Origin: Flavobacteriales bacterium
Lineage (GTDB): Bacteria > Bacteroidota > Bacteroidia > Palsa-965
Direction of reading: 5' to 3'
Length of the DNA stretch: 64,000 nucleotides
Assembly (NCBI GenBank): GCA_040377305.1
Contig: JBEIPA010000014.1
Location: forward strand, 77,780-141,779
In this document: piece by piece, positions 8,703 through 25,344 of the stretch
Numbering within the stretch: the stretch's first letter is position 1
How the letters are laid out: every line of letters starts with the position of its first letter
The notes under the pieces: generated by a model
The model's input: only the letters and a program-made list of their open reading frames with translations
Told to the model about the DNA's origin: nothing
Databases searched by the model: none
Translations under genes and position numbers: made by a program

Positions 8703-10106
8703 TTACCCATCCATTCGCACGATACGCGGACTGAACTTTCCTACGATGTCGACTAAATCAACTTGCGCCTCCATCACCTGAAAAATGTCTTTGTACGCAT
8801 GTGGCGATTCATCCAGACCACCACCGATTAACGTCACGTTATTTTCTTTCAGCACAGATTTCATCTCTGCATTCGTTACGTTTTTCATTGCTGCTGTACG
8901 CGACATTTTACGTCCCGCTCCATGAGAAGCAGAGTTGATGGAAATGCTCGCACCTTTTCCGCGTACAATGAATCCCGGTGCAGTCATCGATCCCGGAATA
9001 ATTCCGAGAACGCCTTTGCCGGCAGGTGTTGCACCTTTACGATGCACGATTACATCTTTGCCGTTGAATTTTTCTTTCCATGCAAAGTTGTGGTGGTTTT
9101 CTACCATCGCGATGGGTTCAACACCAAGCGCAGCTGCAATCTTCTCGTGAATTTTGTGATGACACGCCGAAGCATAATCACCAGCGAGATTCATTGCAAG
9201 CCAATACTCTTGTCCTTCCTGAGTTGAAAGATCAAGCCACGCAAGATGTTTTGCTTCCTGCGGCAAACGACATTTCTCCATTGCCACTTTCGTGTAATGG
9301 TTCGCAATCGTTGCGCCAAGTCCGCGCGAACCGGAATGCGACAACAACGCGAGGTATCGACCTAATGGAAGATTGAACTCGTTGTTCTCATCGCTGATAT
9401 CAACAACTCCGAATTCCACAAAGTGATTTCCCGAACCGGATGTTCCCATTTGCTTCACTGCTTTCAGCTGCAGACCTTTCAGCAATGGAATTTCATCGAA
9501 CAACTTTCGGTCAGTCACTTCAAACTCTTTGTTCTCCTTGAACTCTTGTCCTGAACCAAAGAGTGTATTATCCGTAAGCACTTTGTAAAGTCCGCGCGAG
9601 TCGGTGTCGATGATCTCGTGCGGAGTCGGAAAAATACTCAGGCACATTCGGCAACCGATGTCGACGCCAACTCCATAAGGAATAATTGCGTTTTCCGTAG
9701 CGAGTACACCACCGATCGGCAATCCATAACCCTGATGCGCATCCGGCATCAAAGCACCGGCAACTGCAACCGGCAAACGAATTGCCACATCCATTTGTTT
9801 ACGCGCACCATCTTCGATCTGATCTCCACCGTAAATTGCGTAAGATCCTTGTTCGATGCGCAATGCAATTTCGGGACCTTCCGCTTCTTTCGGCTTTTCC
9901 GTCAACGCATCCGCAATCGCAGCGAGGTTCGTGTCGTCGAGATAATCCGCAGGTGCAGCAAGAATATTTTTCAGCATCTCCATCACATCTTCACGTGATG
10001 ATTTGCGGTAATACTTTTCAATGATGTTGAGGGCAATTCCCACAACGCGTCCTTGTTTGTATCCAAGTTCGCGAAGGTGATCTCCGGTGATGTTTAATTT
10101 GTTCAT
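8703..10106 (-). CDS. rtcB: RNA-splicing/repair ligase RtcB
   Basis: MPDAHQGYGLPIGG, VGVDIGC, GSGNHF, HSGSRG, HRKGAT, SASHGAGR, ESPHAYK motifs. Confidence 0.96.
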   Translation of the reverse strand: MNKLNITGDHLRELGYKQGRVVGIALNIIEKYYRKSSREDVMEMLKNILAAPADYLDDTNLAAIADALTEKPKEAEGPEIALRIEQGSYAIYGGDQIEDGARKQMDVAIRLPVAVAGALMPDAHQGYGLPIGGVLATENAIIPYGVGVDIGCRMCLSIFPTPHEIIDTDSRGLYKVLTDNTLFGSGQEFKENKEFEVTDRKLFDEIPLLKGLQLKAVKQMGTSGSGNHFVEFGVVDISDENNEFNLPLGRYLALLSHSGSRGLGATIANHYTKVAMEKCRLPQEAKHLAWLDLSTQEGQEYWLAMNLAGDYASACHHKIHEKIAAALGVEPIAMVENHHNFAWKEKFNGKDVIVHRKGATPAGKGVLGIIPGSMTAPGFIVRGKGASISINSASHGAGRKMSRTAAMKNVTNAEMKSVLKENNVTLIGGGLDESPHAYKDIFQVMEAQVDLVDIVGKFSPRIVRMDG

Positions 10107-10735: not shown

Positions 10736-10773
10736 GATTATTCTATACTAATCAATTTACAAAATTTGTTTTG

Positions 10774-10844
10774 ACGACCGACAGGGATTCGAACCCCGAT
10801 CCTCAGATTCGTATTCTGAGATTCTTCCGTTGAACTATCGATCG
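10774..10844 (-). tRNA. tRNA-Arg(ACG)
   Basis: Cloverleaf; TCAGA-ATACGAA-TCTGA anticodon arm; GGTTCGAATCC. Confidence 0.85.
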
Positions 10845-10876
10845 AAATACAGTGTCGGGATACGATCCCGACACCT

Positions 10877-11010
10877 CACAGGCAAAAAGCGAAAAGAGAC
10901 TGTTTGCATTGCTCTACCACTGAGCTACACACAACTTTCGCTATGTGGCCGGATTCGAACCGGCGTCCCATGGATTGGAAGTCGAAGTAACTCTTTTCTA
11001 CGGCACTGTT
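10877..11010 (-). ncRNA. Y-RNA-like RNA A (YrlA-like, circularly permuted tRNA cargo)
   Basis: Scaffold TGCCGTA-GAAAAGAG-TTACTTC...CTCTTTTC-GCTTTTTGC; T-arm precedes GAAA-capped acceptor stem, then D-arm. Confidence 0.85.
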
Positions 11011-11015
11011 CATTG

Positions 11016-11089
11016 GGTGTTAGATCGGTTTCGATCCGATTACCTCTTGCTTCACAAGCAAGCGCTCTCCCGAGTGAGCTACAAACACC
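11016..11089 (-). tRNA. tRNA-His(GTG) with G-1
   Basis: CTTGC-TTGTGAA-GCAAG; G-1:C73; atypical T-loop ATCGAAA. Confidence 0.85.
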
Positions 11090-11094
11090 GTGTT

Positions 11095-11178
11095 CAGTAG
11101 GCAGTTTGGCAGTAGTGCAGTTGGCAGTCAAAATATAATTCTCTGACTGCCTACTGCCCAACTGCTTACTGCCTACTG
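11095..11178. repeat. REP/REPIN-like GCAGTAG-unit inverted repeat
   Basis: Tandem cagtaggcagt units facing actgcctactg units; other copies 12557-12642, 18606-18676, 18865-18946, 19126-19201, 55773-55852. Confidence 0.85.
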
Positions 11179-11184
11179 TTCTTG

Positions 11185-11258
11185 TACTCTGTGTGGGATT
11201 CGAACCCACGTGATCTGGTCGAAAACCAGATATACTAGACCAACTATATGAACAGAGC
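11185..11258 (-). tRNA. tRNA-Glu(TTC)
   Basis: TCTGG-TTTTCGA-CCAGA; GTGGGTTCGAATCCCAC. Confidence 0.85.
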
Positions 11259-11343
11259 CTGATTGATTTGCGGATGACGCGCCGGGTTCTCTCCTTTGGA
11301 GAGTTAGAGAGGCGCGGCGCGTAATCCGCAAATCAATCTTCAG

Positions 11344-11417
11344 TCGCGACAGCAGGATTCGAACCTACATCTTCTCCAGTCCAAGTGGAGAGGCTTAGCC
11401 AATTAGCCGACCTCGCG
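11344..11417 (-). tRNA. tRNA-Pro(TGG)
   Basis: CTCCA-CTTGGAC-TGGAG; C1-G72, A73. Confidence 0.85.
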
Positions 11418-11505
11418 ATGTTGATTAGCTGATTTTTAATTTCTGATTTCTGATGCTGAAAGGTGTTACCCCAAGAGCTAATCAAAAATCAGCTAATCCT
11501 ATTTA

Positions 11506-11612
11506 TTGTGAGGAAAAAATCACAGAAAAGACGAAAGCGCCATCTTTCGATGTCAGGATTCGAACCTGTTTCTTCCTGCCACGAAGTATCTCTTCTGTTA
11601 CGTCACTCACAA
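11506..11612 (-). ncRNA. Y-RNA-like RNA B (T-arm plus mini acceptor hairpin cargo)
   Basis: TTGTGAG/CTCACAA terminal stem; TGACGTA-ACAGAAGAG-ATACTTCG; CAGGTTCGAATCCTG; CATC-GAAA-GATG. Confidence 0.8.
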
Positions 11613-11639
11613 ACTCAAAGAACAAATTCAATTTCAAAA

Positions 11640-11734
11640 TAAGCGGGCAAAAGTCAATCAGAGTCTGCCGGGATTTGAACCCGCGTCTTTCGACTTTCTA
11701 CCAAAGAAGTATCTCTGATTTACGGCACCGTTTA
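11640..11734 (-). ncRNA. Y-RNA-like RNA C (T-arm, tmRNA 3'-end-like cargo)
   Basis: TAAACGG/CCGCTTA stem; TGCCGTA-AATCAGAG-ATACTTC...CTCTGATT-GACTTTTGC; GACGCGGGTTCAAATCCCG. Confidence 0.8.
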
Positions 11735-11744
11735 CTTTTAACTA

Positions 11745-12272
11745 TTATCTCGTCGGGATCTTCAATCCCATTTTCTTCATCGCAAGCAATGCTTCTGCAT
11801 TTCCGATTGCGTCGTTGACCGGGTTGTGATCATGACGCGTTTTGCGAAACAATCGCTTCCACTCGCTGTTCAGTCCTCCATCCATTTTCATTCCACAATA
11901 CAGATCACCGATTCGTCTGCCTGAAAATCCAAACGGATTTTTTCCCAGGTAGAAATGGAAGTAATAATTAATCCACTGCCAATCGAACGCGAGGTTATCG
12001 CTGATGAATATTGCTTTGCCGTCGGATGTTGCGTTCAACCATTCGGAGAAACGTTTCATCACTTCGGCGGGCTCCTCGAACGACTCGTGTTGCCCGCGTG
12101 TGAAACCACTTACTGCAAGTGCATCCGGAATCCATTCTTTGGAAATTGGTTGCGTCTTTCCGTAGAATGTTTTCGCGAGTGTGGGTTCTATCACCACTGC
12201 ACCGAAGCAAACCATCGAATATTTATTTGGGATGGGCCCATCGGCCTCTACATCCACTACTATGTAACTCAT
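11745..12272 (-). CDS. DEDD 3'-5' exoribonuclease (RNase AS/Rv2179c-like)
   Basis: VDVEADGP, DNLAFDW, HNPVNDA motifs. Confidence 0.85.
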   Translation of the reverse strand: MSYIVVDVEADGPIPNKYSMVCFGAVVIEPTLAKTFYGKTQPISKEWIPDALAVSGFTRGQHESFEEPAEVMKRFSEWLNATSDGKAIFISDNLAFDWQWINYYFHFYLGKNPFGFSGRRIGDLYCGMKMDGGLNSEWKRLFRKTRHDHNPVNDAIGNAEALLAMKKMGLKIPTR

Positions 12273-12304
12273 TTTGTTTTTGTTTTTAATCAATTTAATA
12301 ATTT

Positions 12305-12377
12305 AAGCTGGCAACAAACTCGCAGAGGTTTTGGTCTAATTAACAGTTAGAAGTAACTCTGCAATACGGCACAGCTT
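12305..12377 (-). ncRNA. Y-RNA-like RNA D (isolated Asn anticodon stem-loop cargo)
   Basis: AAGCTG/CAGCTT stem; TGCCGTA-TTGCAGAG-TTACTTC...CTCTGCGA-GTTTGTTGC; TCTAA-CTGTTAA-TTAGA. Confidence 0.8.
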
Positions 12378-12435
12378 GCCGATGTGCCGATTTCCAATAT
12401 GCCAATATGCCGATTGGAAATACCTCAATAAAATT

Positions 12436-12553
12436 CGGAAGCAAAAAACGATTCGGGTGGGGCGTCGCAATGAGGATTTGCACCTCTTCCTGGTTTTTAC
12501 ATCAGGACCCTTGCCCCCTGTCGAGCGAAGTATCCCGGCTCTACGGCATTCCG
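12436..12553 (-). ncRNA. Y-RNA-like RNA E (D-armless tRNA-like cargo)
   Basis: CGGAA/TTCCG stem; TGCCGTA-GAGCCGGG-ATACTTCG...CCCGAATC-GTTTTTTGC; GGGGC/GCCCC stem with two hairpins. Confidence 0.75.
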
Positions 12554-12556
12554 TTT

Positions 12557-12642
12557 CAGTAGGCCGTTTGGCAGGCGTTCAGTAGGCAGTCAAAATTTAT
12601 TCCTAATGACTGCCGACTGCACTACCGCACTACTGCCTACTG
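12557..12642. repeat. REP/REPIN-like GCAGTAG-unit inverted repeat
   Basis: Same unit family as 11095-11178. Confidence 0.8.
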
Positions 12643-12647
12643 ATTAA

Positions 12648-12867
12648 ACAACGGTAACTGGCAACAAGTCTGCTTTCTGCTTTCACAGAATACGGCCGTC
12701 CTATTTCTGTATTGCTACAGACAGTTGACTGGTAATCATCATCCGCATGGTGTCAGGATCTGAAATCCTGATACTGCGCACTCAGATTAACGTTCGCGAA
12801 CCACAGTTACCCGTGCATCACTACCTTAGGACCGTTATCGAAGTATGACCCGTTTACGACACGTTGT
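12648..12867 (-). ncRNA. Y-RNA-like RNA F (about 220 nt, 23S rRNA H69-like cargo)
   Basis: ACAACG/CGTTGT stem; TGTCGTA-AACGGGTC-ATACTTCG...GACTTGTT-GCCAGTTAC; contains ATAACGGTCCTAAGGTAG. Confidence 0.75.
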
Positions 12868-12987: not shown

Positions 12988-14502
12988 CTACAACTCGAGT
13001 TGTTTTATCATCGCGATTGCATCTGTACCGTTTTCTGCAGCATACAATACGTCGAACACTTTATCTGACCAGCCCGCGATGAGTGTTACATCGTCGCGCT
13101 GCACACTGATTGGTGTGTTACCGTAACCTGCGAGGTCGAACAAGTACAGTTTCGCCATTGGCGCAATCTGTTTGTATTCTTTCCACGCCGTCTGCAACGA
13201 ATCACCGTCAGCTTTGGTATTCCACATCTGGCAGTCAGTGAACATCATCACTTTGTCCATCACAACATTGCGCTGAACAAGATCTTTGATCACCAGGTAA
13301 CCATTTGTGGCGTAACCAACTTCACCTTCCCGCTTGTAGTACTCATCAACATTCGCAAGTACTCCACGGTTAGGCATGTTGATTACCTTCCAGCGATCTC
13401 CGAACATTCCGGAAACCACTCGTTCACACTTGCTCTGCATCAGCATACCCAGTACCAGACCGATATCGAACAAATACACTTTGCTCTTCGCCGAGATTGG
13501 TTTCTGCATTGAACCCGAAACGTCACACGCAATCAACACACGTGTTTTGTAATCGAATCCGCTGATGTTTTTCGCTGAAGCTACAATTGCATCTTCCAGC
13601 GCGTTAAGTATCATCGACACGTAATCAGCTTTCAGCACTTTCACTTCACGGTATGCAGACAGGAAACGGAATGGCAACTGCTTCGATTTCGCAACCTGGT
13701 TTGCATCAGAAAGCGTATCACACACTTTTTTGATTGCATCCCATGATACACCCGCTTCAATCATGTTACGGATGTTACGCAACATCGCCATGTATCCCAG
13801 CTTACCGCTGAAGATCAGTTCTTCCCATTTCGCACGAACCGCAAGCTCTTTTGCTTTTGCATCAGCGAATTTTTGCTGACCCAAAGCAGAAAGTTCAGTT
13901 TCCCAGGTATAAGCAACAGACAGCTCTTTCGCAGCGATCTTGTTGAAGACTGCTTGCTGTTCATCACTTTTCGCTTTCGGGTGAACAAGGAACAATGCAT
14001 CACGCAACGTTACTGCCGCTTCACGGTTGTATTTCGAGAACTGGTATTCATCAAAACGATTGAACGCCTTTGCGAGTCCTTTCTGTACCTGTTTCGAAAG
14101 CTTGTTCAGTTTCTTAGTTCCCGAACGGTTGTTCGCCAGTTGGTAGTAAGCCAGAAGCTCAGTGATCTCATCAGCACGCTGAACGACACCGTTCACCGCT
14201 TTGGATACAACTATATTTCCGGAGTTACGTTTTGCAAGTTCGACTGCAAGCACCTGTGGAATAGAACGCATGTACATTTTGTTACGTGCATACACCGCAA
14301 GCTTCGCCACGAATTCAGCATCTGTCTTCTCCATGAGATCCACGATACGTTGAAGACGCTCGTTTCCTTTCTCATAGAACGAATCGCTCAGTCCTGCGGT
14401 TACTACCGCTGAATACAGTTCGAGCTCAGGAGTCATTGCGAATGCTTTTGCGCCTTCGTAATTAGTGACTGCTGTTTTACGTTTGAAGATGTTGAATTTC
14501 AT
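12988..14502 (-). CDS. Ro60/Rsr TROVE-domain RNA-binding protein with vWA domain
   Basis: NYEGAKAF N-terminus, LRDALFLVHPK, AMLRNI, LPFRFLSAY, DVSGSM (MIDAS), FTD. Confidence 0.93.
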   Translation of the reverse strand: MKFNIFKRKTAVTNYEGAKAFAMTPELELYSAVVTAGLSDSFYEKGNERLQRIVDLMEKTDAEFVAKLAVYARNKMYMRSIPQVLAVELAKRNSGNIVVSKAVNGVVQRADEITELLAYYQLANNRSGTKKLNKLSKQVQKGLAKAFNRFDEYQFSKYNREAAVTLRDALFLVHPKAKSDEQQAVFNKIAAKELSVAYTWETELSALGQQKFADAKAKELAVRAKWEELIFSGKLGYMAMLRNIRNMIEAGVSWDAIKKVCDTLSDANQVAKSKQLPFRFLSAYREVKVLKADYVSMILNALEDAIVASAKNISGFDYKTRVLIACDVSGSMQKPISAKSKVYLFDIGLVLGMLMQSKCERVVSGMFGDRWKVINMPNRGVLANVDEYYKREGEVGYATNGYLVIKDLVQRNVVMDKVMMFTDCQMWNTKADGDSLQTAWKEYKQIAPMAKLYLFDLAGYGNTPISVQRDDVTLIAGWSDKVFDVLYAAENGTDAIAMIKQLEL

Positions 14503-14547
14503 GACTGTTTGTTTTAATTGTTATTGACGCTGCAAATGTTTTACTCA

Positions 14548-14571
14548 TCTACGCAATGGTCTTGCGCAGTT
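14548..14571. promoter_or_regulatory. Putative WYL-regulator operator upstream of Ro60 gene
   Basis: TCTACGCAATGGTCTTGCGCAGTT, 20/24 identical to reverse complement of 15709-15732. Confidence 0.75.
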
Positions 14572-14655
14572 CGATTTATTTTAACTTTTTGTTTTAATCG
14601 CCTGATTTTCAGTTGGCATTAATTCGTTTTTTCAATCGCAACATTTATTGCGGCG

Positions 14656-14728
14656 TTGGAAAGGAAGGGCTCGAACCTTCGACCTTGTGCGTATAAGGCA
14701 CGTGCTCTTACCACTGAGCTACTCTCCA
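14656..14728 (-). tRNA. tRNA-Ile(TAT)
   Basis: CGTGC-CTTATAC-GCACA; canonical D and T arms; A73. Confidence 0.85.
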
Positions 14729-14735
14729 AGTCTTG

Positions 14736-14807
14736 CGGCGCGGATTGGACTTGAACCAATATAATCTCCCTTAACAGGGGAGAGCTCTACCATTGAGCTA
14801 CCAGGCC
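14736..14807 (-). tRNA. tRNA-Asn(GTT)
   Basis: CTCCC-CTGTTAA-GGGAG; G73. Confidence 0.88.
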
Positions 14808-14812
14808 ATTTG

Positions 14813-14885
14813 CGGTAACGATGGGATTCGAACCCACAACTTTCCGATAGACAATCGGACGCTCTAGCCGTTGAACTACGCTACC
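14813..14885 (-). tRNA. tRNA-Asp(GTC)
   Basis: TCCGA-TTGTCTA-TCGGA; G73. Confidence 0.88.
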
Positions 14886-14890
14886 ATTTG

Positions 14891-14963
14891 TGGACAAGGA
14901 AGGAATTGAACCTTCATCTTCTGATCTTCAGTCAGCCGCATTCACCGCGTTTGCTACCTGTCC
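14891..14963 (-). tRNA. tRNA-Phe(GAA)
   Basis: CTGA-CTGAAGA-TCAG; A73. Confidence 0.82.
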
Positions 14964-14969
14964 GTTTTG

Positions 14970-15043
14970 TTGACCCACCAGGGCTCGAACCTGGAACCCC
15001 CACTTTAAAAGAGCGGTGCATCTAACCATTGAGCTATGGATCA
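14970..15043 (-). tRNA. tRNA-Lys(TTT)
   Basis: CCGCT-CTTTTAA-AGTGG; A73. Confidence 0.85.
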
Positions 15044-15055
15044 ATATTTCTTCGC

Positions 15056-15111
15056 TTGTCCTCCTTCGGCAAAGCCTGTGCTGAGCGAAGTCGAAGTGCT
15101 CAGTCTGACAA
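15056..15111. repeat. REP-like element (CTGAGCGAAGTCGAAG family); partner arm at 15201-15232
   Basis: ctgagcgaagtcgaag versus cttcgactacgctcag flanking tRNA-Gln. Confidence 0.65.
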
Positions 15112-15115
15112 GTCG

Positions 15116-15186
15116 TTGTCGGAAATGGATTTGAACCACTATAGCCAGATTCAAACTCTGGTGTCCTACCATTAGACGATCCGACA
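15116..15186 (-). tRNA. tRNA-Gln(TTG)
   Basis: CCAGA-GTTTGAA-TCTGG; U1-A72. Confidence 0.85.
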
Positions 15187-15231
15187 TTCAGTGTGTTTTC
15201 TTGTCATTCTTCGACTACGCTCAGTATGACA

Positions 15232-15262
15232 ATAAAAAAACCCGGTCGTGTGCGGACCGGGT
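15232..15262 (-). terminator. Attenuator terminator 2 (directly before tRNA-Gln)
   Basis: ACCCGGTC/GACCGGGT stem followed by T-run. Confidence 0.85.
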
Positions 15263-15285
15263 CTAACAAATCAGTTCAACTGATT

Positions 15286-15375
15286 TCAGTTATGACAACA
15301 TCGGTCCACGAATTTTCCTTTCTGAAAATCTCGTTCGCTAAAATTGGGCAAGGCTATATAACTATGTTTCTTCAT
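15286..15375 (-). CDS. Leader peptide MKKHSYIALPNFSERDFQKGKFVDRCCHN (29 aa)
   Basis: Translated by hand; its GTGGACCG can pair with terminator arm CGGTCCGC. Confidence 0.7.
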   Translation of the reverse strand: MKKHSYIALPNFSERDFQKGKFVDRCCHN

Positions 15376-15473
15376 GGTGTTTCTTTCTCTTCAACTTTTT
15401 TATTGTCAGGCCGAGTAGTCATTGCAGTCTGCGGAGCAACTTGTGCTTGAAGATCGACGTACCGAGGTCGGGC

Positions 15474-15504
15474 AATAAAAAAGCCCCGAATCTCTCCGGG
15501 GCTT
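15474..15504 (-). terminator. Attenuator terminator 1
   Basis: AAGCCCCG/CGGGGCTT stem followed by T-run. Confidence 0.85.
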
Positions 15505-15528
15505 TACTTCAGTTATATCCTAAAGCAA

Positions 15529-15606
15529 TTACACCCCGTGCAACAGACGATCTCCTTCGAGATTTATCTGTTTGCGTGTTTGCGGATATGTAAAATGCTT
15601 TTTCAT
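15529..15606 (-). CDS. Leader peptide MKKHFTYPQTRKQINLEGDRLLHGV (25 aa)
   Basis: Translated by hand; its CGGGGT can pair with terminator arm GCCCCG. Confidence 0.7.
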   Translation of the reverse strand: MKKHFTYPQTRKQINLEGDRLLHGV

Positions 15607-15625
15607 TTTTCTTCTTATTCTGCGA

Positions 15626-15658
15626 CAAATATATTGTAAAGAAATAATGCGATCCAAA
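15626..15658 (-). promoter_or_regulatory. Bacteroidetes sigma-A promoter for leader/tRNA operon
   Basis: TTTG-N21-TATATTTG matches the -33/-7 consensus. Confidence 0.75.
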
Positions 15659-15708: not shown

Positions 15709-15732
15709 AACTGCGCAAATACATTGCGCAGA
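15709..15732. promoter_or_regulatory. Putative WYL-regulator operator (autoregulatory)
   Basis: CTGCGCAA-N5-TTGCGCAG perfect inverted repeat just upstream of WYL gene. Confidence 0.75.
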
Positions 15733-15766: not shown

Positions 15767-16795
15767 ATGCCGATAAACAAACTCGCACTCATCCGCTACA
15801 AGACAATTGATAACTGTCTGCAGAACCGTTTCCGCAAATGGACACTTGACGATCTAGTGGATGCATGCTCGCGTACACTGGAAGAGTTCGAAGGAATTAC
15901 ACAAGGAGTAAGCAAGCGTACTGTTCAGCTCGATATTCAGACGATGCGCAGTGAAAAGCTAGGATACAATGCTCCTATTGTGGTCAGCGACAAGAAGTAT
16001 TATTCGTACGAAGACAAGAATTACAGCATCACGAATATTCCGTTGACGAGTCAGGATTTAGGAACGCTCACGGAAGTTGTAGATATTCTACGCCAGTTTA
16101 AAGGGTTCGGTTACTTCGAAGAGCTCAGCACAATGGTGAACAAGCTCGAGGACAAAGTGCAGTCTCAGAAGAACAAAGGTCGCTCGTATATACACTTTGA
16201 GAAAAATGATTTGCTAAAAGGTCTCGAGTACATCGAATCATTGCACAAGGCGATCATTCGTCAGAAAACGATTGACGTATTATATCAGTCGTTCAAAGCA
16301 CGTGAAGCGACAAGCATCATTTTTCATCCTTATCTGCTCAAGGAATACCGCAACCGCTGGTTTGTGATCGGCTCAACGCAAAAGAAAACAATTCTTACTC
16401 TGGCACTGGATAGAATTTTTTCTGTGAAAGAAGTCGGTGGAGAGAAATACATCAAGAATACCTTCTTTGATGTTGACTCGTACTTTGATGATACGATTGG
16501 CGTTACGAAGAATCTCGGGATTCGACCACAATTGGTCGTGATGAAAATTGATCGTACGAATGCGCCATACGTAATCACAAAACCGATTCACCACACGCAG
16601 AAGATTCTGAAGACAGAACCCGACGGAATGATTTTCAGTATTAACGTGACGTGGAATTTTGAGTTGGAAAGAGAAATCCTTGGGTTTGGTGAACAGATAA
16701 AGGTGTTATCGCCAAAGAGATTGCAGAATAAGATTAGCTGGAGGGTGAAGAGGATGGTGGAGAGGTATGAGGAACTTCAACCAAATGAACGATGA
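15767..16795 (+). CDS. WYL-domain transcriptional regulator (wHTH-WYL-WCX)
   Basis: VSKRTVQLDIQTMR HTH; HPYLLKEYRNRWFVIG, LALDRI, ILGFGEQIKVLSP. Confidence 0.92.
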   Translation: MPINKLALIRYKTIDNCLQNRFRKWTLDDLVDACSRTLEEFEGITQGVSKRTVQLDIQTMRSEKLGYNAPIVVSDKKYYSYEDKNYSITNIPLTSQDLGTLTEVVDILRQFKGFGYFEELSTMVNKLEDKVQSQKNKGRSYIHFEKNDLLKGLEYIESLHKAIIRQKTIDVLYQSFKAREATSIIFHPYLLKEYRNRWFVIGSTQKKTILTLALDRIFSVKEVGGEKYIKNTFFDVDSYFDDTIGVTKNLGIRPQLVVMKIDRTNAPYVITKPIHHTQKILKTEPDGMIFSINVTWNFELEREILGFGEQIKVLSPKRLQNKISWRVKRMVERYEELQPNER

Positions 16796-17880
16796 GCGGC
16801 AAAGTAAATTCATTTCACGAAGCAGTTCGAACGAGACCTGGCATGTATATTGGCAGATTGGGTCCCGCTGGTTTCGGTTATCTTGTCAGCGAACTGATTA
16901 GAGATTTTGCTGCTGACCTGCAAGCAAAAGAAGCGCATGTGAGGATCGACATAAAAGGGAAGGTCACAATTAAATTTCCCGAAATAAATTGCACTCAGGC
17001 TGACCTTTATACTTTAATAAAAAATGGTCGGATGAGTCGCAGTTCTTCATTTTGGAGGACATCACTTGCCATTATCCCGCCGTTATCAAAAGCGACCACG
17101 CTCAAAATCGGAAGCACTAAGTATACTGTCAGCCGCAACGCTAAACTTAATCCTCACTTCGAGTCCGATACCGCTAAAGCTATTTCACGATTTGAAATAA
17201 CCTTTCAACCGGATGCAGGTATTCTCAAAGCCAAAGCGCCTGAAATACTTACTTTATGTGCTCGCTTGCATGAGCTCACGGTGGTTTGTCCCGGATTAAA
17301 AATCACTTACCGTGATGACAATACAAAACCATTTACGCAAATGGTCTGGCATACTCCTGAAGGAATACGCACACTATTGGCGCCGGCACGAAATATGTTT
17401 TATGAAAAGAAATTAGAAGGAGGTTTTTCCTTTAACGAAAAAGGACTACGCGGTGAGGTGTACTGGTTATGTGCAAACGGGGGATGTGATCCTATCTATT
17501 CATTTGCTAACGGTGAACGTACTGTGAAAGGCGGATCGCATGTGAAAGGATGCGTACAAGGTATACTGGACGCGTTGAAGGATTTAGTCAAAGGAAATGG
17601 CGAGAAATATGACTTCAGTGTGTCTCGTGCAATCCGACATCAATGTCTCGTAGTTTCCGTTTGGGGAAACGGCCTAAGCTATGCGGGCAGTACAAAAGAA
17701 TGTCTGGAACATAAACCTACAAACCAAATTCTCCGCAAACTTGTTGGTGCGCACATGGAGCAGCTGTGTGCGTCGAATCCAAAGGATGCTATACAACTTA
17801 CGTATCGGTTGCAGAAATGGAATCTTGCGGAGATGTATCCTGAATTGTATTCCGGAAAATCAAGGAAAAAGAAGAAGTAA
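16792..17880 (+). CDS. Stand-alone degenerate GyrB/ParE N-terminal (GHKL plus transducer)-like protein
   Basis: AVRTRPGMYIG, SFANGERTVKGGSH, YAGSTKECL; no TOPRIM domain. Confidence 0.7.
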   Translation: MSGKVNSFHEAVRTRPGMYIGRLGPAGFGYLVSELIRDFAADLQAKEAHVRIDIKGKVTIKFPEINCTQADLYTLIKNGRMSRSSSFWRTSLAIIPPLSKATTLKIGSTKYTVSRNAKLNPHFESDTAKAISRFEITFQPDAGILKAKAPEILTLCARLHELTVVCPGLKITYRDDNTKPFTQMVWHTPEGIRTLLAPARNMFYEKKLEGGFSFNEKGLRGEVYWLCANGGCDPIYSFANGERTVKGGSHVKGCVQGILDALKDLVKGNGEKYDFSVSRAIRHQCLVVSVWGNGLSYAGSTKECLEHKPTNQILRKLVGAHMEQLCASNPKDAIQLTYRLQKWNLAEMYPELYSGKSRKKKK

Positions 17881-17881
17881 G

Positions 17882-18514
17882 ATGAAAATCATAGCCATTT
17901 CAGATACACACGGTCAGCATGGGAAGGTTGTGCTACCGGAAGGTGATGCGATTATTCACGCTGGTGATGTTTCCGTACGTGGAACTGAATCGCAGATCGT
18001 CGATTTCATCAACTGGTTTTCGGGACTGAACTATCGGTACAAGATTTTCATTGCGGGCAATCATGACTTCTTCTTCGAAAGAGAGTCACAGGAGAAAATC
18101 AAATCTCTGATTCCCGAGAACGTTATATACCTGAACGATTCCGGTATTGAACTAGAAGGAATCAAAATCTGGGGCTCGCCGATTCAACCCTGGTTTCAGG
18201 ACTGGGCGTTTAATCGGCAGAGAGGAATTGATATTCGTAAACACTGGGACATGATTCCGGGTGACACGGATATACTCATCACTCACGGGCCAGCGAAAGG
18301 AATTCTCGATCGCTTGGTTTACGGAGAAGAAGTTGGTTGTGTTGATCTTCTTGACGCGGTTAACAGAATCAATCCCGCCTTTCATGTCTTCGGCCACATT
18401 CATGAAGGATACGGAGAGCATCAAGAAGGGAAAACTAAATTCATTAACGCTGCCGTTCTCAATGAAGATTATTTCCTCGCGAATTCACCAATAGCATTTG
18501 AGTTCCTAAAATAA
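17882..18514 (+). CDS. Metallophosphoesterase (MPPED/calcineurin-like)
   Basis: SDTH, HAGD, AGNHD, THGP, FGHIHE motifs. Confidence 0.92.
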   Translation: MKIIAISDTHGQHGKVVLPEGDAIIHAGDVSVRGTESQIVDFINWFSGLNYRYKIFIAGNHDFFFERESQEKIKSLIPENVIYLNDSGIELEGIKIWGSPIQPWFQDWAFNRQRGIDIRKHWDMIPGDTDILITHGPAKGILDRLVYGEEVGCVDLLDAVNRINPAFHVFGHIHEGYGEHQEGKTKFINAAVLNEDYFLANSPIAFEFLK

Positions 18515-18515
18515 G

Positions 18516-18601
18516 TTGGGTAGGCCGGATTCGAACCGACATGTTTAGCACGTGGCAGCAGATTTACAGTCTGCCCCCTTCACCAGTTTGGATACTACCC
18601 A
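18516..18601 (-). tRNA. tRNA-Tyr(GTA) copy 1
   Basis: GCAGA-CTGTAAA-TCTGC; long variable arm. Confidence 0.88.
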
Positions 18602-18682
18602 GTTTCAGTAAGCAGTTGTGCAGTTGGCGGTATCATAATTTGACTGCTTGCTGCCAGGCTGCACTACTGCCTACTGTTTCAG

Positions 18683-18765
18683 CGGAAGATATAGGAGTCG
18701 AACCCTGTCCTTTCGGACCGCCCCAGATTTCAAGTCTGGTTGACCACCATCGGTCGCTATCTTCC
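18683..18765 (-). tRNA. tRNA-Ser(TGA), imperfect T-stem
   Basis: CCAGA-CTTGAAA-TCTGG; variable arm; G73. Confidence 0.75.
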
Positions 18766-18773
18766 AATAATTG

Positions 18774-18861
18774 CGGAGAACATTGGAATTGAACCAATAG
18801 TTCACTTTCGCGAACGCACATTAGCAGTGTGCTGCAACGAGCCAATAGTTGCCTGCTCTCC
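18774..18861 (-). tRNA. tRNA-Ser(GCT)
   Basis: GCACA-CTGCTAA-TGTGC; long variable arm; G73. Confidence 0.85.
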
Positions 18862-18952
18862 TTACAGTAGGCAGTTGGGCAGTCGTTCAGTAGTCAGTCA
18901 AGTATTTTTTTGACTGCCTACTGCCAAACTGCATTACTGCTTACTGGCAAAG

Positions 18953-19026
18953 TACTCCGAAGCAGATTCGAACTGCTACTTAACGGGGCTTAACGCCGTT
19001 GTCTCTTCCAGTTGGACTACCGGAGT
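18953..19026 (-). tRNA. tRNA-Leu(TAA) lacking long variable arm
   Basis: ACGGC-GTTAAGC-CCCGT; 5-nt variable loop; A73. Confidence 0.75.
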
Positions 19027-19035
19027 AAAAATTAG

Positions 19036-19121
19036 TTGGGTAGACAGGATTCGAACCTGTACGTTTAGCACATGGCAGCAGATTTACAGTCTGCCCCCTT
19101 CACCAGTTTGGATACTACCCA
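19036..19121 (-). tRNA. tRNA-Tyr(GTA) copy 2
   Basis: Near-identical to 18516-18601. Confidence 0.88.
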
Positions 19122-19208
19122 GTTTCAGTAGGCAGTAAGCAGTTGTGCAGTTGGCAGTATCATAATTTGACTGCTTACTGCACACTGCACTGCTGCCTAC
19201 TTCTTTCG

Positions 19209-19281
19209 TAGCGATAAAGAGATTCGAACTCTTACTGAACGGTTTCTAAGACCGTTGCCTCTGCCGTTGGGCTACATCGCT
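19209..19281 (-). tRNA. tRNA-Leu(TAG) lacking long variable arm
   Basis: ACGGT-CTTAGAA-ACCGT; 5-nt variable loop; A73. Confidence 0.82.
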
Positions 19282-19340
19282 ATTTTTTACACAACACTCT
19301 TCCACCTCCACATCGCGAATATTTTTTCGCAACATGAACT

Positions 19341-19375
19341 AAAAACAAAAAGCCTCCTGATGTTTTCAGGAGGCT
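19341..19375 (-). terminator. Attenuator terminator before Leu/Tyr/Ser tRNA cluster
   Basis: AGCCTCCTGA/TCAGGAGGCT stem followed by TTTTTGTTTTT. Confidence 0.88.
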
Positions 19376-19400
19376 CTCGTATACTGTATGATATTACAGA

Positions 19401-19727: not shown

Positions 19728-20426
19728 ATGGCTATTTCAAGAAAATACGGCCGTACATACCATTATCCATTTTCTCCCGGAACTACAAGCGATGATCGCA
19801 TCAGCCACGACTACTGGAATGATGTGACAAAAATTGCTTCGCTGATTCACACGGAAAAACTGGACGGTGAAAACAATTGCCTTAATCGTTATGGTGTTTT
19901 TGCGCGTTCGCATGCGGCCCCATCGCAATCGCCGTGGACGGCATGGTTGCGTGAACGTTGGGAGTTACTGAAACATGATCTCGGTGATCTGGAAATATTC
20001 GGCGAGAATCTTTACGCAATACATTCAATCGAATACGCGAAGCTGGAAAATCATTATTATGTTTTCGGTGTGCGGCGCGAAGATCATTGGTTGTCGTGGG
20101 AGGAAACTAAGTTCTATGCGAGTATGCTGGACTTTCCGACTGTACCTGAGATTCAACTTATTTCGACACCCATCGACCGGAAAGTATTCGAAGCCGATGT
20201 GCTTTCGATTGTTTCGCAGGAAAGTAAAATGGGAAGCCTCGATGCTTTCACCGGCAAAGTCTGCACGATGGAAGGAATTGTAACCCGCAACACCGGCGAA
20301 TATGCCGTAACTGATTTCGCGCATCATGTTTTCAAATACGTGCGAAAAAGTCACGTGAAAACAGATGCACACTGGACACGTAACTGGAGAAGATCAAAAC
20401 TGATCTGGGAACGAGCCGGCGACTAA
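19728..20426 (+). CDS. ATP-dependent RNA ligase family protein
   Basis: KYGRTYHYPFSPG, TEKLDGEN (KxDG), FGENLYA, EGIV, FKYVR. Confidence 0.88.
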   Translation: MAISRKYGRTYHYPFSPGTTSDDRISHDYWNDVTKIASLIHTEKLDGENNCLNRYGVFARSHAAPSQSPWTAWLRERWELLKHDLGDLEIFGENLYAIHSIEYAKLENHYYVFGVRREDHWLSWEETKFYASMLDFPTVPEIQLISTPIDRKVFEADVLSIVSQESKMGSLDAFTGKVCTMEGIVTRNTGEYAVTDFAHHVFKYVRKSHVKTDAHWTRNWRRSKLIWERAGD

Positions 20427-20444
20427 CTAACAATTTCAAAATGA

Positions 20445-21557
20445 ATGTTTATGTGGACAATTTCGGATATAAAGCAATGGCAAACGCTCTACGACAAGTT
20501 CGACTGGGTGCGCGATATGCGTGGCGTTCCCCAGGATCGCGTGCATCATGCAGAAGGTGATGTGGAAGTACATACGCGCATGGTACTTGATGCGTTGGAA
20601 AATCTTCCAGACTATCAGCAACTGAATGAACAGGACAGAGAAATTCTTTGGGCTTCTGCTTTGCTGCACGATGTAGAAAAACGATCAACTACTATTCACA
20701 ATGAAGACGGACGTATATCTTCTCCCAATCACGCAAAAAAGGGTGCAGCTACAACGCGCAGTTTGTTGTACCGCAACATTCCCGCACCGTTTCATATTCG
20801 CGAAGCTGTGGTGAAGCTCGTGCGTTATCACGGCTTACCGCTGTGGGTATTCCATAAACCTGATCCGGCAAAAGCGCTAATTGCGGCAAGTCTTTCCGTG
20901 AATACGCATCACCTTAGTCTGCTCGCTGAAGCAGATGTGCTTGGAAGAGAATGCGCGGATCGTAATGAACTTCTTTATCGTGTGGAAATGTTTCGGGAAC
21001 TATGCAAAGAACAGCTCGCGTATGGAAAAGCAAAATCCTTTCCATCTGAACTCAGCAAGATGAACTATTTCCGGAAAGAAGACGGTTCGCCGGACTATGA
21101 ACCATTCGACGTTACGCAATGTGAAGTAGTTTTACTTTCAGGTTTGCCGGGATCAGGAAAAGACAATTATCTGCGGAAATATCTGAAAGAGTGGCCGGTG
21201 GTAAGCATCGATGACATTCGAAAGAAAAATAAAATCTCCCCGACGGATAAAAAAGGAAATGGCCAGGCGATACAGATGGCGAAGGAACAGGCGCGAGTAT
21301 ACCTGCGAAGCAAAACTTCATTCGTGTGGAATGCAACGAACATCACGCGATCTATGCGAGGGCAGTTGATTGATCTGTTTCTCACTTACAAAGCGAAAGT
21401 GAAGATCGTGTACGTAGAGGTTCCTTACGCCACATTGCGTAGACAAAACCGCGAACGTGAACACGTGGTTCCGGCAGCTGCATTGGAGAAATTAATCGAT
21501 AAGCTGGAGGTTCCAACGCCGGACGAAGCGCATGAGATCATATATGAAATAAAATAG
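20445..21557 (+). CDS. HD phosphohydrolase fused to P-loop polynucleotide-kinase-like domain
   Basis: HHAEGDV..HT, LLHDVEK, GLPGSGKD, WNATN. Confidence 0.88.
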   Translation: MFMWTISDIKQWQTLYDKFDWVRDMRGVPQDRVHHAEGDVEVHTRMVLDALENLPDYQQLNEQDREILWASALLHDVEKRSTTIHNEDGRISSPNHAKKGAATTRSLLYRNIPAPFHIREAVVKLVRYHGLPLWVFHKPDPAKALIAASLSVNTHHLSLLAEADVLGRECADRNELLYRVEMFRELCKEQLAYGKAKSFPSELSKMNYFRKEDGSPDYEPFDVTQCEVVLLSGLPGSGKDNYLRKYLKEWPVVSIDDIRKKNKISPTDKKGNGQAIQMAKEQARVYLRSKTSFVWNATNITRSMRGQLIDLFLTYKAKVKIVYVEVPYATLRRQNREREHVVPAAALEKLIDKLEVPTPDEAHEIIYEIK

Positions 21558-21652
21558 TGCCCGGACAATCAATTGCAGATGTTCCTTTTTTTAAATATCC
21601 ATTAAACATGACACTTTTTATTGCATCTTAGCTGCTCAACAAATGCATTCTT

Positions 21653-22204
21653 ATGTCCGCTATTTATGATTCCTACGCCATCTTCGGCGAATTTACCGGT
21701 AAAGATCTCGGCACCGAAGAAATGAAAATGGGATTAGCAAACCGCGTCTTCAATCGTACAGAGGCGCTTCACGGTGACGCAATTTCACTCGTCAAAAAAT
21801 CCAATCATGAACGCATCCGTCTGAAACGGGGAGTGTACCGCATTACGGCAACTTCTTTTTTAACCATGCTCACTGCGGGAGTTCCGCCGGTACCTCCGGT
21901 GAAGACAGAATTTCTCTCCGATGTGTACCCCGGCTACTGTATGTTGTATGATGCAAACGATCCTCCTACCGAAGCGGACATGTCTAAGATGCTTTATCCC
22001 GGAACCATGGGAACGGCTTATGATGGCGTTCCAAGTCTTCTCGATTGTGTGCTCAAAGTAAAAGACAAACACATGGACATTTCACTCGGCCACCAGTGCA
22101 GCTACGATGGACCTAAGGGAGATCTCCGGCCAAAAGTTTATCTGCGTATCGGCGGTTCAGACTTCCACGTATGCGCACGCATTTCCATTTTTAAGATCGC
22201 TTAA
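21653..22204 (+). CDS. Hypothetical protein
   Basis: 183-aa ORF with ATG start and A-rich upstream. Confidence 0.65.
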   Translation: MSAIYDSYAIFGEFTGKDLGTEEMKMGLANRVFNRTEALHGDAISLVKKSNHERIRLKRGVYRITATSFLTMLTAGVPPVPPVKTEFLSDVYPGYCMLYDANDPPTEADMSKMLYPGTMGTAYDGVPSLLDCVLKVKDKHMDISLGHQCSYDGPKGDLRPKVYLRIGGSDFHVCARISIFKIA

Positions 22205-22226
22205 AACAACCACAATTCTGAGCTGT

Positions 22227-23000
22227 ATGAAAATATTTCTTGCACCTGTTGCATTGGGTCTGCTGCTGCTCACATGCAGTTCACCGAAAGAAAGTAATCA
22301 CGCCGTTGATTCCGCTGCTGTTGACACAACGAAAAACGACACCCCGTTAGTCAGCGGCAATGGAGCTGCATTTGTCTACGGCATCGACATCTCTTCCTAC
22401 CAGGGCGACGAGATCGATTTTCTTAACAGCAAACAGGATACACTTTCGTTTGTAATCTGCAGAGCAACACTCGGTATTACGGTTACCGACACCGACTTTA
22501 AGAACAACTGGAGCCTCATTCCACAAAAGGGATTTATCCGCGGGGCTTATCACTTTTATGAATGTAACGACGATCCAACCGAACAGGCGCAACATTATCT
22601 CGACATTGTTGGTACTCTTGCTGCCGGAGATCTTCCTCCTATTCTTGATTTTGAACAGGCGGGCCTCGCCGACATTATAGACAAGCAGAAAATTCAGAGT
22701 GACCTACTGACTTTTCTCAGCACAGTGGAAAGCGCAACCGGGAGAACACCTTTGATTTATGTAAGTCCGGACTTTGCGAATGTGTATCTGACTGATCCGG
22801 CATTTGCGAAGTATCCCTTGTACGTTGCCGACTACAACGGACAACAGAAGCCATCCGTTCCGACGGTGTGGAAATCGGAGCAATGGACGCTCTGGCAAAA
22901 AACGGACACCGTTCACGTGAACGGAAATCAAAATGACTACGACATGTTCAATGGTAGCGCAGAAGCCTTACAGGCATTCATTAACGGAACCGGCAAGTAA
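22227..23000 (+). CDS. GH25 muramidase lipoprotein
   Basis: GIDISSYQG, RGAYHF, PPILDFE motifs; lipobox. Confidence 0.88.
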   Translation: MKIFLAPVALGLLLLTCSSPKESNHAVDSAAVDTTKNDTPLVSGNGAAFVYGIDISSYQGDEIDFLNSKQDTLSFVICRATLGITVTDTDFKNNWSLIPQKGFIRGAYHFYECNDDPTEQAQHYLDIVGTLAAGDLPPILDFEQAGLADIIDKQKIQSDLLTFLSTVESATGRTPLIYVSPDFANVYLTDPAFAKYPLYVADYNGQQKPSVPTVWKSEQWTLWQKTDTVHVNGNQNDYDMFNGSAEALQAFINGTGK

Positions 23001-23008
23001 AATTATTG

Positions 23009-23623
23009 TCAGAGCGGCTCGCGTATTATTTTACCCGCATTTCCCCTCTGCAACGAATGGTGCTCCAGCCATTGCGACCTTTGTTGCGCGTTCAATTCAT
23101 CGACATGCATACCGAGCAGTTTATTCTTCAAACGTTCAGTAGCTGCTTTTTTATTCAACATCTGCGAACGTTCCTCTGAAGCCGTAACACTGATTCCGCT
23201 TGGAACATGCGTAGCACGAACTGCTGATTCCGTTTTGTTCACATGCTGTCCACCGGGACCTGATGCGCGCATGGTTTGATACGTAACGTCTTTCTCTTTC
23301 CATTCAGGAAAAACGGATACATCATAAACGTGGATGCCCGCAAACCAATTTTTTCGTTTGTGGTTTTTCCGGAACGGACTCTGCGCAATCCACTGCACGG
23401 TTCCTTCCCACTCTATATAGAACGAAGACACGTTTTCTCCTCTGATCCGGATCAGTGCCGACAACAACGTATCATCCGGCTTCCCGGGAACAAGCTCAAT
23501 GATTTCCACACCGAGCTGTTCCCGTTCTGCCGCTTTCGTAATCTTCTTAAGAAGAAGCGCCACAACTCTTTCGCATTCTGCCGGACCTTTGCCGGAAGTT
23601 ATCTGCATGATTTTTTCTTTCAT
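23009..23623 (-). CDS. prfH: Peptide chain release factor H
   Basis: QITSGKGPAEC, GTVQWIAQSPFR..HKRKNWF, SGPGGQHVNKTESAVR. Confidence 0.95.
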   Translation of the reverse strand: MKEKIMQITSGKGPAECERVVALLLKKITKAAEREQLGVEIIELVPGKPDDTLLSALIRIRGENVSSFYIEWEGTVQWIAQSPFRKNHKRKNWFAGIHVYDVSVFPEWKEKDVTYQTMRASGPGGQHVNKTESAVRATHVPSGISVTASEERSQMLNKKAATERLKNKLLGMHVDELNAQQRSQWLEHHSLQRGNAGKIIREPL

Positions 23624-23628
23624 CGTTT

Positions 23629-25035: not shown

Positions 25036-25192
25036 TTGTTTCTTCGTTGTTGAATTTAAGTTCTTTGAATTCTCTTCCCACTGTAAGCCGAATCCGTTGC
25101 TTCTCCTCTTGTGTCTTTCGGATCTGAGTTCTTCTTCGTTTTGTTCTGAACCTTCCGGACAAGACATAGGAATCCCATGTGGCTGTTGCCAT
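25028..25192 (-). CDS. Small Arg/Lys-rich protein (54 aa), stop overlaps rtcB start
   Basis: MATATWDSYVLSGRFRTKRRRTQIRKTQEEKQRIRLTVGREFKELKFNNEETNE; A-rich start context; ATGAGTAA overlap. Confidence 0.6.
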   Translation of the reverse strand: MATATWDSYVLSGRFRTKRRRTQIRKTQEEKQRIRLTVGREFKELKFNNEETNE

Positions 25193-25344
25193 TGTTTTTT
25201 GTTGTGTTGAATAAACAGTGAATTATTCCGATGAATCAGAAGACCTGCAAATGCAACCACGGGCCACAGAAATTCTGTAGTTAGTCAGCGCCGACTATGA
25301 AAACTTTATTCGTAAAAAATGGAAATAGAATTCAAAGCCGCGCT

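Follow-up and report, generated by a model that had tools for sequence, protein, structure and literature searches.

Organisation of the Locus

The window (the whole stretch of DNA analysed, 64,000 nt) has a chromosomal setting: the contig that holds it is 141.8 kb long and belongs to an assembly of 5.2 Mb, and the neighbouring genes read from their ORFs as ordinary chromosomal genes. It carries an island encoding a WYL-WCX factor, Ro60, an Rv2179c-like exonuclease, two RtcB proteins, PrfH, an RNA ligase, an HD/kinase protein and 16 tRNAs, 15 of them called at the default threshold and tRNA-Ser(TGA) added at a relaxed threshold (Table 1). The order on the minus strand, i.e., promoter-like site, leader 1, terminator 1, leader 2, terminator 2 and six tRNA genes, had been proposed in an initial annotation made from the sequence, and is borne out by the coordinates (TTTG, 21 nt, TATATTTG; leaders of 25 and 29 aa). 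The TTTG-21 nt-TATATTTG arrangement resembles the Bacteroidota promoter consensus. Sigma-70 promoter scans of the window were set aside, as Bacteroidota promoters fall outside the sigma-70 model. The distance from leader stop to terminator stem is 24 nt for leader 1 and 22 nt for leader 2.

Ten downstream tRNAs had been listed, and their identities are confirmed, but only six follow the leaders directly; the genes for tRNA-Pro, -Glu, -His and -Arg are found 3.2 kb past these, on the far side of Ro60. Among the five Y-RNA-like units in this part of the island only one (10880-10997) scores with the YrlA model, at 39.8 bits and so below the 69-bit gathering score. Some of the units carry tRNA-like arms, and the relaxed tRNA calls for Ser(CGA) and Cys(ACA) in the window, and for Asn(GTT) in locus L252, were rejected as Y-RNA-like units. 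At gathering score, the Rfam covariance models found only tRNAs in the window, with no T-box or curated leader family, and a search of 15232-15658 at E values up to 1 matched no relevant family. The WYL gene is followed on the plus strand by genes for a GyrB-like fragment protein and a metallophosphoesterase (16792-18514), while the RNA ligase, HD/kinase protein, PrfH and second RtcB (19728-25260) form a ribosome-rescue module beside the island. The spacers that separate gates and tRNAs (15376-15478, 15187-15236 and 15044-15114) are short repeats that recur in the genome, with 19, 27 and 5 BLAST hits, respectively, including self.

Table 1. Coordinates of the features at the locus, in positions of the window.
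Feature	Position	Strand	Remarks
RtcB RNA ligase	8703..10106	-	Domain match; terminator-like site downstream at 8690-8664
Distal tRNAs Pro(TGG), Glu(TTC), His(GTG), Arg(ACG)	10773..11417	-	tRNA calls
Five Y-RNA-like units	10880..12867	-	Common 29-nt motif; exonuclease gene and distal tRNAs interspersed
Rv2179c-like 3'-5' exonuclease gene	11745-12293	-	Domain match
Ro60/TROVE protein	12988..14502	-	Pfam TROVE
Palindrome (14549-14569) and -7-like element (14533-14540)	14533..14569	-	Candidate internal Ro60 promoter
Proximal tRNA array Gln(TTG), Lys(TTT), Phe(GAA), Asp(GTC), Asn(GTT), Ile(TAT)	14655..15186	-	tRNA calls
Terminator 2	15230..15264 (hairpin 15264-15238)	-	Predicted, -15.0 kcal/mol, U run; tRNA-Gln 52 nt downstream
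Leader ORF 2, 29 aa	15286..15375	-	Antiterminator segment 15302-15309
Terminator 1	15472..15505 (hairpin 15505-15480)	-	Predicted, -16.6 kcal/mol, U run
Leader ORF 1, 25 aa	15529..15606	-	Antiterminator segment 15533-15538
Bacteroidota-type promoter-like site	15626..15658	-	TTTG 15655-15658, 21 nt, TATATTTG 15626-15633; predicted start
Palindrome	15711..15731		55 nt before WYL gene; candidate operator
WYL-WCX transcription factor	15767..16795	+	Domain match; divergent from leaders
Second tRNA array Leu(TAG), Tyr, Leu(TAA), Ser(GCT), Ser(TGA), Tyr	18515..19281	-	Ser(TGA) at 18682-18765, relaxed threshold
Terminator 3	19340..19378	-	Predicted hairpin, -18.6 kcal/mol
Leader ORF 3, 26 aa	19401..19481	-	Antiterminator segment 19415-19422; Leu/Ser/Tyr 11/25 codons

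Leader Units Elsewhere in the Genome

A leader and terminator precede three of the 33 array-heading or single tRNAs of the genome: the two arrays of the window and a second tRNA-Cys on another contig (C50). Leader 3, which is absent from the initial annotation, is narrow in content, its share of Leu, Ser and Tyr codons matching the array behind it (P 0.004-0.021) and being attained by none of 70 unrelated leaders. It has a nearly leaderless start, 7 nt past a -7-like element. The tRNA-Cys unit (L254; C50:23451-20949, minus strand) has a Cys/Met-rich leader with five Cys and seven internal Met codons, shows the same switch geometry as the units of the window, and precedes tRNA-Cys followed by a gene set for sulfur assimilation, with sulfite-reductase-like and cobA genes. 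It looks like a classical biosynthetic attenuator of equal geometry, and suggests a possible origin of the module.

The tRNA-Cys unit also favours a reading in which all of these leaders are ordinary multivalent attenuators of amino-acid starvation, the signal being uncharged tRNA and the extra tRNAs having nothing to do with tRNA damage; to a stalled ribosome, an uncharged and a missing tRNA are indistinguishable. No amino-acid biosynthesis gene stands behind leaders 1-3, however, where the neighbours are RNA-repair genes instead, and a lack of amino acid would presumably not be cured by more tRNA. The composition of the tRNAs themselves bears further on this reading (see below).

Predicted Folding of the Leaders

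As the initial annotation had noted, each leader ends with a segment complementary to the 5' arm of its terminator (15533-15538 with 15497-15502, and 15302-15309 with 15252-15259). When nascent RNA ending in the terminator loop was folded, the leader tail paired with this arm, enclosing a spacer hairpin (z -4.0 and -4.2). Folding with a ribosome at successive positions, assuming a ribosome shadow of 12 nt, gave an antiterminator pairing for leader 1 of 0.83-0.90 with A-site codons 1-19 and at most 0.10 at codons 21-24; for leader 2 it was 0.85 up to codon 20, 0.01-0.05 at codons 22-23 and 0.3-0.6 at the last codons. The predicted switch point is thus at codons 20-22.

At equilibrium, the full transcripts of leaders 1 and 3 fold with the terminator (0.95-0.99) whatever the ribosome position, and equilibrium folding was rejected as a switch model for these two leaders; the switch must therefore be kinetic. 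Of the untranslated forms, the full naked transcript folds with the terminator, but naked nascent RNA favours the antiterminator (0.85, 0.85 and 0.81 for leaders 1-3). Specificity is consequently not inherent in the fold, and the gate would also be opened by antibiotics or when initiation fails: folding predicts that any ribosome lag causes read-through, with no need for a tRNA shortage. No protector helix is predicted for leaders 1 and 2. The part of PMC13753749 consulted does not establish coupling of transcription and translation in Bacteroidota.

These predictions agree with the possibility that the leaders are general sensors which, as E. coli toiL does, respond to ribosome lag of any origin, be it antibiotics, damage to ribosomes or failed initiation, with the codon match to ten tRNAs a by-product or relic. 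By prediction, a stall at any position before codon 20 would act alike, ten amino acids are half of the code, and RtcB, PrfH and RNA ligase are encoded in the same island; according to the portion of PMC8421152 consulted, chloramphenicol induces a tRNA array in cyanobacteria. Such a sensor would have no reason to follow the content of the array behind it, yet leader content does so in related loci (see below).

Codon Content of Leaders 1 and 2

All ten amino acids fall inside codons 4-19 of leader 1 and codons 3-18 of leader 2, 16-codon spans that end before the antiterminator, and each leader has one ATA codon. The claim that both leaders cover all ten tRNAs stands at the amino-acid level (15/24 and 19/28 matched codons), but under standard wobble leader 2 reaches nine of ten, because its single Pro codon is CCC, which tRNA-Pro(UGG) reads by extended wobble only. 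The codon-coverage permutation check that had been proposed gave a mixed outcome over four null models: coverage of all ten exceeds chance (P 0.006-0.016 for leader 1, 0.016-0.027 for leader 2), whereas the matched-codon count is not significant in leader 1 (P 0.08-0.20) and borderline in leader 2 (P 0.018-0.043). Full coverage of the proximal six tRNAs is unremarkable (P 0.045-0.20), and leader 1 matches these six no better than do unrelated leaders (share 0.38 against 0.40), so its significance depends on counting the distal four.

Ten amino acids so closely packed occur in 721 of 1,184,017 18-residue windows of long ORFs, in 2 of 2,423 N-termini and in 11 of 13,974 short ORFs, the span for these counts having been chosen from the folding but with the sequences already known. 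Four of the 70 unrelated leaders hold all ten.

The leaders might also be chance frames, or small proteins with terminators of their own, the tRNAs being transcribed from other starts. Suitable frames are common, since 271 of the 793 predicted terminators in the genome are preceded by some ATG frame of 12-45 codons, and 12 of the 271 contain all ten amino acids; in addition, the peptide encoded by leader 2 shows poor conservation. On the other side, 30 of the 33 first tRNAs of the genome are without such a unit, and the leaders have no NCBIfam name, a Pfam-type or NCBIfam name not being expected for them. Given also the frame-specific co-variation with array content, and the conservation of the switch in orthologues described in the next section, we regard chance frames as a highly improbable explanation.

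Comparison with Related Loci

Units were collected by a rule blind to codon content, which takes a terminator at most 450 nt before an array of at least two tRNAs and the longest ATG frame of 12-45 codons with its stop 12-40 nt before that terminator. It was run on the window together with L031-L128 and L130-L249, 219 sequences in all; L001-L030, 30 short loci that overlap longer ones or, in one case, are unpublished, were left out, L129 is the window itself, and L048, a duplicate of L032, was removed. Arrays may include a few false relaxed tRNA calls (Y-RNA-like units). The relatives of the WYL gene come nearly all from records titled Bacteroidota. The strict tRNA-Ile(TAT) pattern was found in 2 of 401 genomes of the phylum, this one included, a number too small for a survey; the marker is narrow, so the pattern is rare among the genomes searched rather than absent.

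A unit heads 57 of the 106 arrays with at least 300 nt upstream (3/23 pairs and 54/83 larger arrays), and none was detected by the rule at the other 49. The 82 units comprise 34 from WYL-neighbour loci and 48 held-out units found by the tRNA-Ile(TAT) pattern; related units among them are independent only in part, and the held-out loci may include phage sequences. Comparison of homologues had been proposed as a check of the leaders, and it showed that leader composition follows the leader's own array: the share of residues matching it is 0.428, against 0.325 with arrays permuted (n = 82, z 11.2), and the match is present in the 48 held-out units (z 8.4). Frames +1 and +2 and the reverse strand give no match (z -1.3 to 0.1). 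A first clustering that put 79 of the 82 units in one group was unusable and was replaced; with one unit per similarity cluster (27-33 clusters) the median z is 6.0-6.1 and the minimum 5.2. Stratification by array size and by AT content gives z 5.0 and 6.5, and removal of the largest (29-member) cluster together with this genus leaves z 6.3, or 3.6 for the held-out part (n = 22).

Individual amino acids follow the same pattern, 17 of 19 being commoner in leaders when their tRNA is present; the exceptions, Gly and Val, are represented by one and three units. It extends to the codon level, where ATA makes up 112 of 150 Ile codons if tRNA-Ile(TAT) is the only Ile tRNA of the array, 11 of 26 if both Ile tRNAs are present and 18 of 41 if neither is. 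Arg codons show a similar trend, and isoacceptor bias for Ser and Leu is weak or untestable. Matched codons are overrepresented from 8 to 21 codons ahead of the stop (a single position of the 14 is flat), with no consistent excess in the last seven. Considered singly against the nearest array, 18 of the 82 units match no better than unrelated leaders, among them leader 1 with its proximal six. The leader tails pair better with their own than with swapped terminator arms (-9.15 against -6.54 kcal/mol, p 5e-5). Unit by unit, antiterminator pairing stronger than in the unit's own shuffles is seen in no more than 41 of the 82, and in 12 of 31 clusters.

Within a Mucilaginibacter-like family of 17 related rows, leader content follows the array for Phe (p 0.012) and Cys (p 0.006), Fisher values that are overstated because none of the 14 tree branches is starred, which leaves the tree unresolved and allows no independent-pair test. 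Tracking of array content across clusters, within this family and at the level of ATA codons, together with the existence of narrow leaders such as leader 3, speaks against general lag sensors, an explanation that we consider unlikely; the general and the codon-matched readings can hold together.

Orthologues of leader 1 keep its length of 25 codons in all six other aligned loci of the genus. Those of leader 2 have little sequence likeness, and still pack all ten amino acids within 12-13 codons (L031 and L032), or 22 codons in the truncated L033. Both the stop-to-terminator spacing and the antiterminator are conserved. In two other members of the genus (G001 and G008), tRNAs for Pro, Glu and His were not found and the distal tRNAs are Leu and Tyr; all four of their leaders are without Pro and Glu codons and are richer in Tyr, with His only in the antiterminator tail. 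The same leaders retain Gln, Asn and Arg codons, although the matching tRNAs were not found, and the contrast is one between two states within a single genus. With these limits, the diverged leader-2 orthologues and the leaders of G001 and G008 favour counting the distal four tRNAs with the leaders.

Tandem leaders head 15 of 56 arrays by a relaxed rule, some false calls included, and one nine-tRNA array (L131) is headed by three leader-terminator units in series. In two cultured Mucilaginibacter strains (Mucilaginibacter sp. Bleaf8, L083, and SG564, L122), a leader of 17-18 codons that the strict rule missed stands before tRNAs for Pro/Ile(TAT)/Gln or Cys. An apparently decaying locus (L034) has its tRNA-Gln and tRNA-Lys genes split by short palindromic insertions (9900-10060), and its leaders match poorly.

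Array tRNAs

Nine of the ten array tRNAs have a housekeeping counterpart, to which they are 51-74% identical, and tRNA-Ile(TAT) has none. The anticodon loops differ from the housekeeping copies in seven of the nine. Where the housekeeping copy has G37, which is so for five types in the arrays (Arg, His, Pro, Gln and Leu(TAG)), the array tRNA carries A37 without exception; elsewhere in the arrays of the window, Asp has T37, and Glu and Phe have G37. The swap is partial in other loci, with 25 A and 24 G among the tRNA-Pro genes. TrmD and TilS are modification enzymes of tRNA, acting in the context of m1G37 and lysidine, respectively. The altered loops fit independence from these two modifications, or an evasion of nucleases, as proposed for phage tRNAs in the part of PMC10264068 consulted.

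The preference for ATA and the altered loops point to failure at the level of the tRNA, and with the lack of biosynthesis genes behind leaders 1-3 make simple amino-acid starvation an improbable account of these units.

Candidate WYL Operator and the Ro60/RtcB Genes

A conserved palindrome, T[GA]CGCA-N7-TGCG[CT]A, and not direct repeats, was found in the island. Ahead of the WYL gene it is present at 65 of 98 loci; the corresponding figures are 30 of 42 for Ro60 and 14 of 46 for rtcB, against an overall frequency of 0.01 per 150 nt. It is likely to be the operator of this WYL family, and perhaps marks an undescribed RNA-repair regulon. In the window, the copy at 15711-15731 is likely the operator of the WYL gene, and the one before Ro60 likely belongs to an internal promoter that WYL would bind and control. 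In four loci (L037, L050, L056 and L127), Ro60 adjoins WYL with no called tRNA array between them. The palindrome before Ro60 and this adjacency imply that the Ro/Y/RtcB genes likely have their own WYL-linked promoter, and need not depend on the leaders, and that the gated cassette looks inserted upstream of them.

The predictions show no strong terminator from tRNA-Ile up to rtcB, which also favours counting the distal four tRNAs with the leaders. The initial annotation had the leaders releasing the spare tRNAs and possibly the Ro/Y/RtcB genes; gating of the tRNAs gains from the co-variation, the codon placement and the two further matched units, while release of Ro/Y/RtcB is weakened by the palindrome before Ro60. 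Upstream of the WYL gene in L056, L069 and L071, arrays of 10-13 tRNAs lie divergent from it; no leader unit was found for them, and they are possibly under WYL control, with a content complementary to that of the gated array opposite.

Proposed Mechanism

The reading that we prefer, with a probability of about 0.7, is that each leader and its terminator form a ribosome-controlled attenuator, and that the series of two lets polymerase reach the spare tRNAs only when ribosomes lag on the codons of those tRNAs. It draws on the layout, on the ten amino acids packed before the antiterminator and on a leader composition that follows the tRNA set. Since both leaders hold all ten amino acids, the spare tRNAs are likely made only when ribosomes stall for want of a working tRNA.

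According to the folding, a ribosome that has passed codon 20-21 would cover the antiterminator and allow the terminator to form, and one held at codons 2-19 would leave the antiterminator free to capture the 5' arm of the terminator. The usual trigger would be the loss of a working tRNA through cleavage, missing modification or missing charging. The released tRNAs, most of them altered in the loop, would restore decoding, upon which the gate would close again, and two gates would leak less than one. The gated transcript would continue via Ro60 into the four distal tRNAs and on to rtcB, which are likely served by their own WYL-controlled promoter as well.

More widely, some Bacteroidota may carry modular tRNA-pool homeostats, in which a leader matched to its array senses loss of those tRNAs (to anticodon nucleases or lost modifications) and frees loop-altered replacements, the tandem form acting as an AND gate; we hold this extension to be an even bet. 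If it is true, the leader codons would record the natural targets of attack among the tRNAs. The presence of extra tRNA arrays in bacteria and phages, and the way in which they are switched on, pose long-open questions, to which the codon-matched attenuator offers a testable answer: the array as a feedback reserve for the tRNAs named in the leader. Leader-peptide attenuation would then extend from amino-acid supply to tRNA supply, tRNA replacement would be tied to RNA repair on a cellular chromosome, and the leaders could provide compact, reprogrammable sensors for single tRNA species.

Comparison with Known Systems

Apart from a protector helix, on which the folds of full and nascent RNA differ, every attenuator feature that can be tested in sequence was found at the locus, which would work like a multivalent leader-peptide attenuator. 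Examples in enterobacteria are thrL, the ilvGMEDA leader and pheM before pheST. The likeness to these lies in a short leader ORF, codons matched to function, and a ribosome position that sets antiterminator against intrinsic terminator; unlike them, the present units have tRNA as output, up to ten amino acids, for most of which one or two codons are present instead of a run, and two leaders in series. In the trp attenuator, a protector (1:2) or pause hairpin gives termination when the leader is untranslated. T-box control of a clostridial tRNA-Asn operon is a possible precedent for tRNA genes controlled by tRNA sensing. In the main texts of openly available papers, no account was found of leader-peptide attenuators before tRNA genes. 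The novel points are the tRNA output, the input of up to ten codon classes and the frequent tandem arrangement.

For the systems that follow, the comparison draws on parts of the papers cited. The E. coli toiL uORF reports ribosome stalls at many positions and responds to antibiotics (PMC12121999), but there control is by translation and Rho termination, and the codons are unmatched to the output. The cyanobacterial trn operon is a silent array of spare tRNAs, induced by translational stress and co-regulated with rtcB (PMC8421152); its control is described in terms of direct repeats in the promoter and a repressor (PMC8421152), and of TrcR (PMC10272220), and the words 'leader', 'attenuat' and 'terminator' do not occur in the main text of PMC8421152. 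In the Salmonella rsr-yrlBA-rtcBA operon, RtcR senses damaged tRNA by binding tRNA halves (PMC7790460). Ro60, Y-like RNAs (below gathering score here) and RtcB are found together in both systems; the locus described here differs in its WYL-WCX neighbour and in having tRNAs behind RNA-level gates, and neither RtcR nor RtcA was among the 15 neighbours scanned. Tandem short ORFs, each within an attenuator, are known from the Salmonella mgtCBR leader, where mgtP senses charged tRNA-Pro (PMC3641672). The signals for mgtM and mgtP are different and additive, whereas the two leaders described here sample a common set of ten specificities, each in front of an intrinsic terminator of its own.
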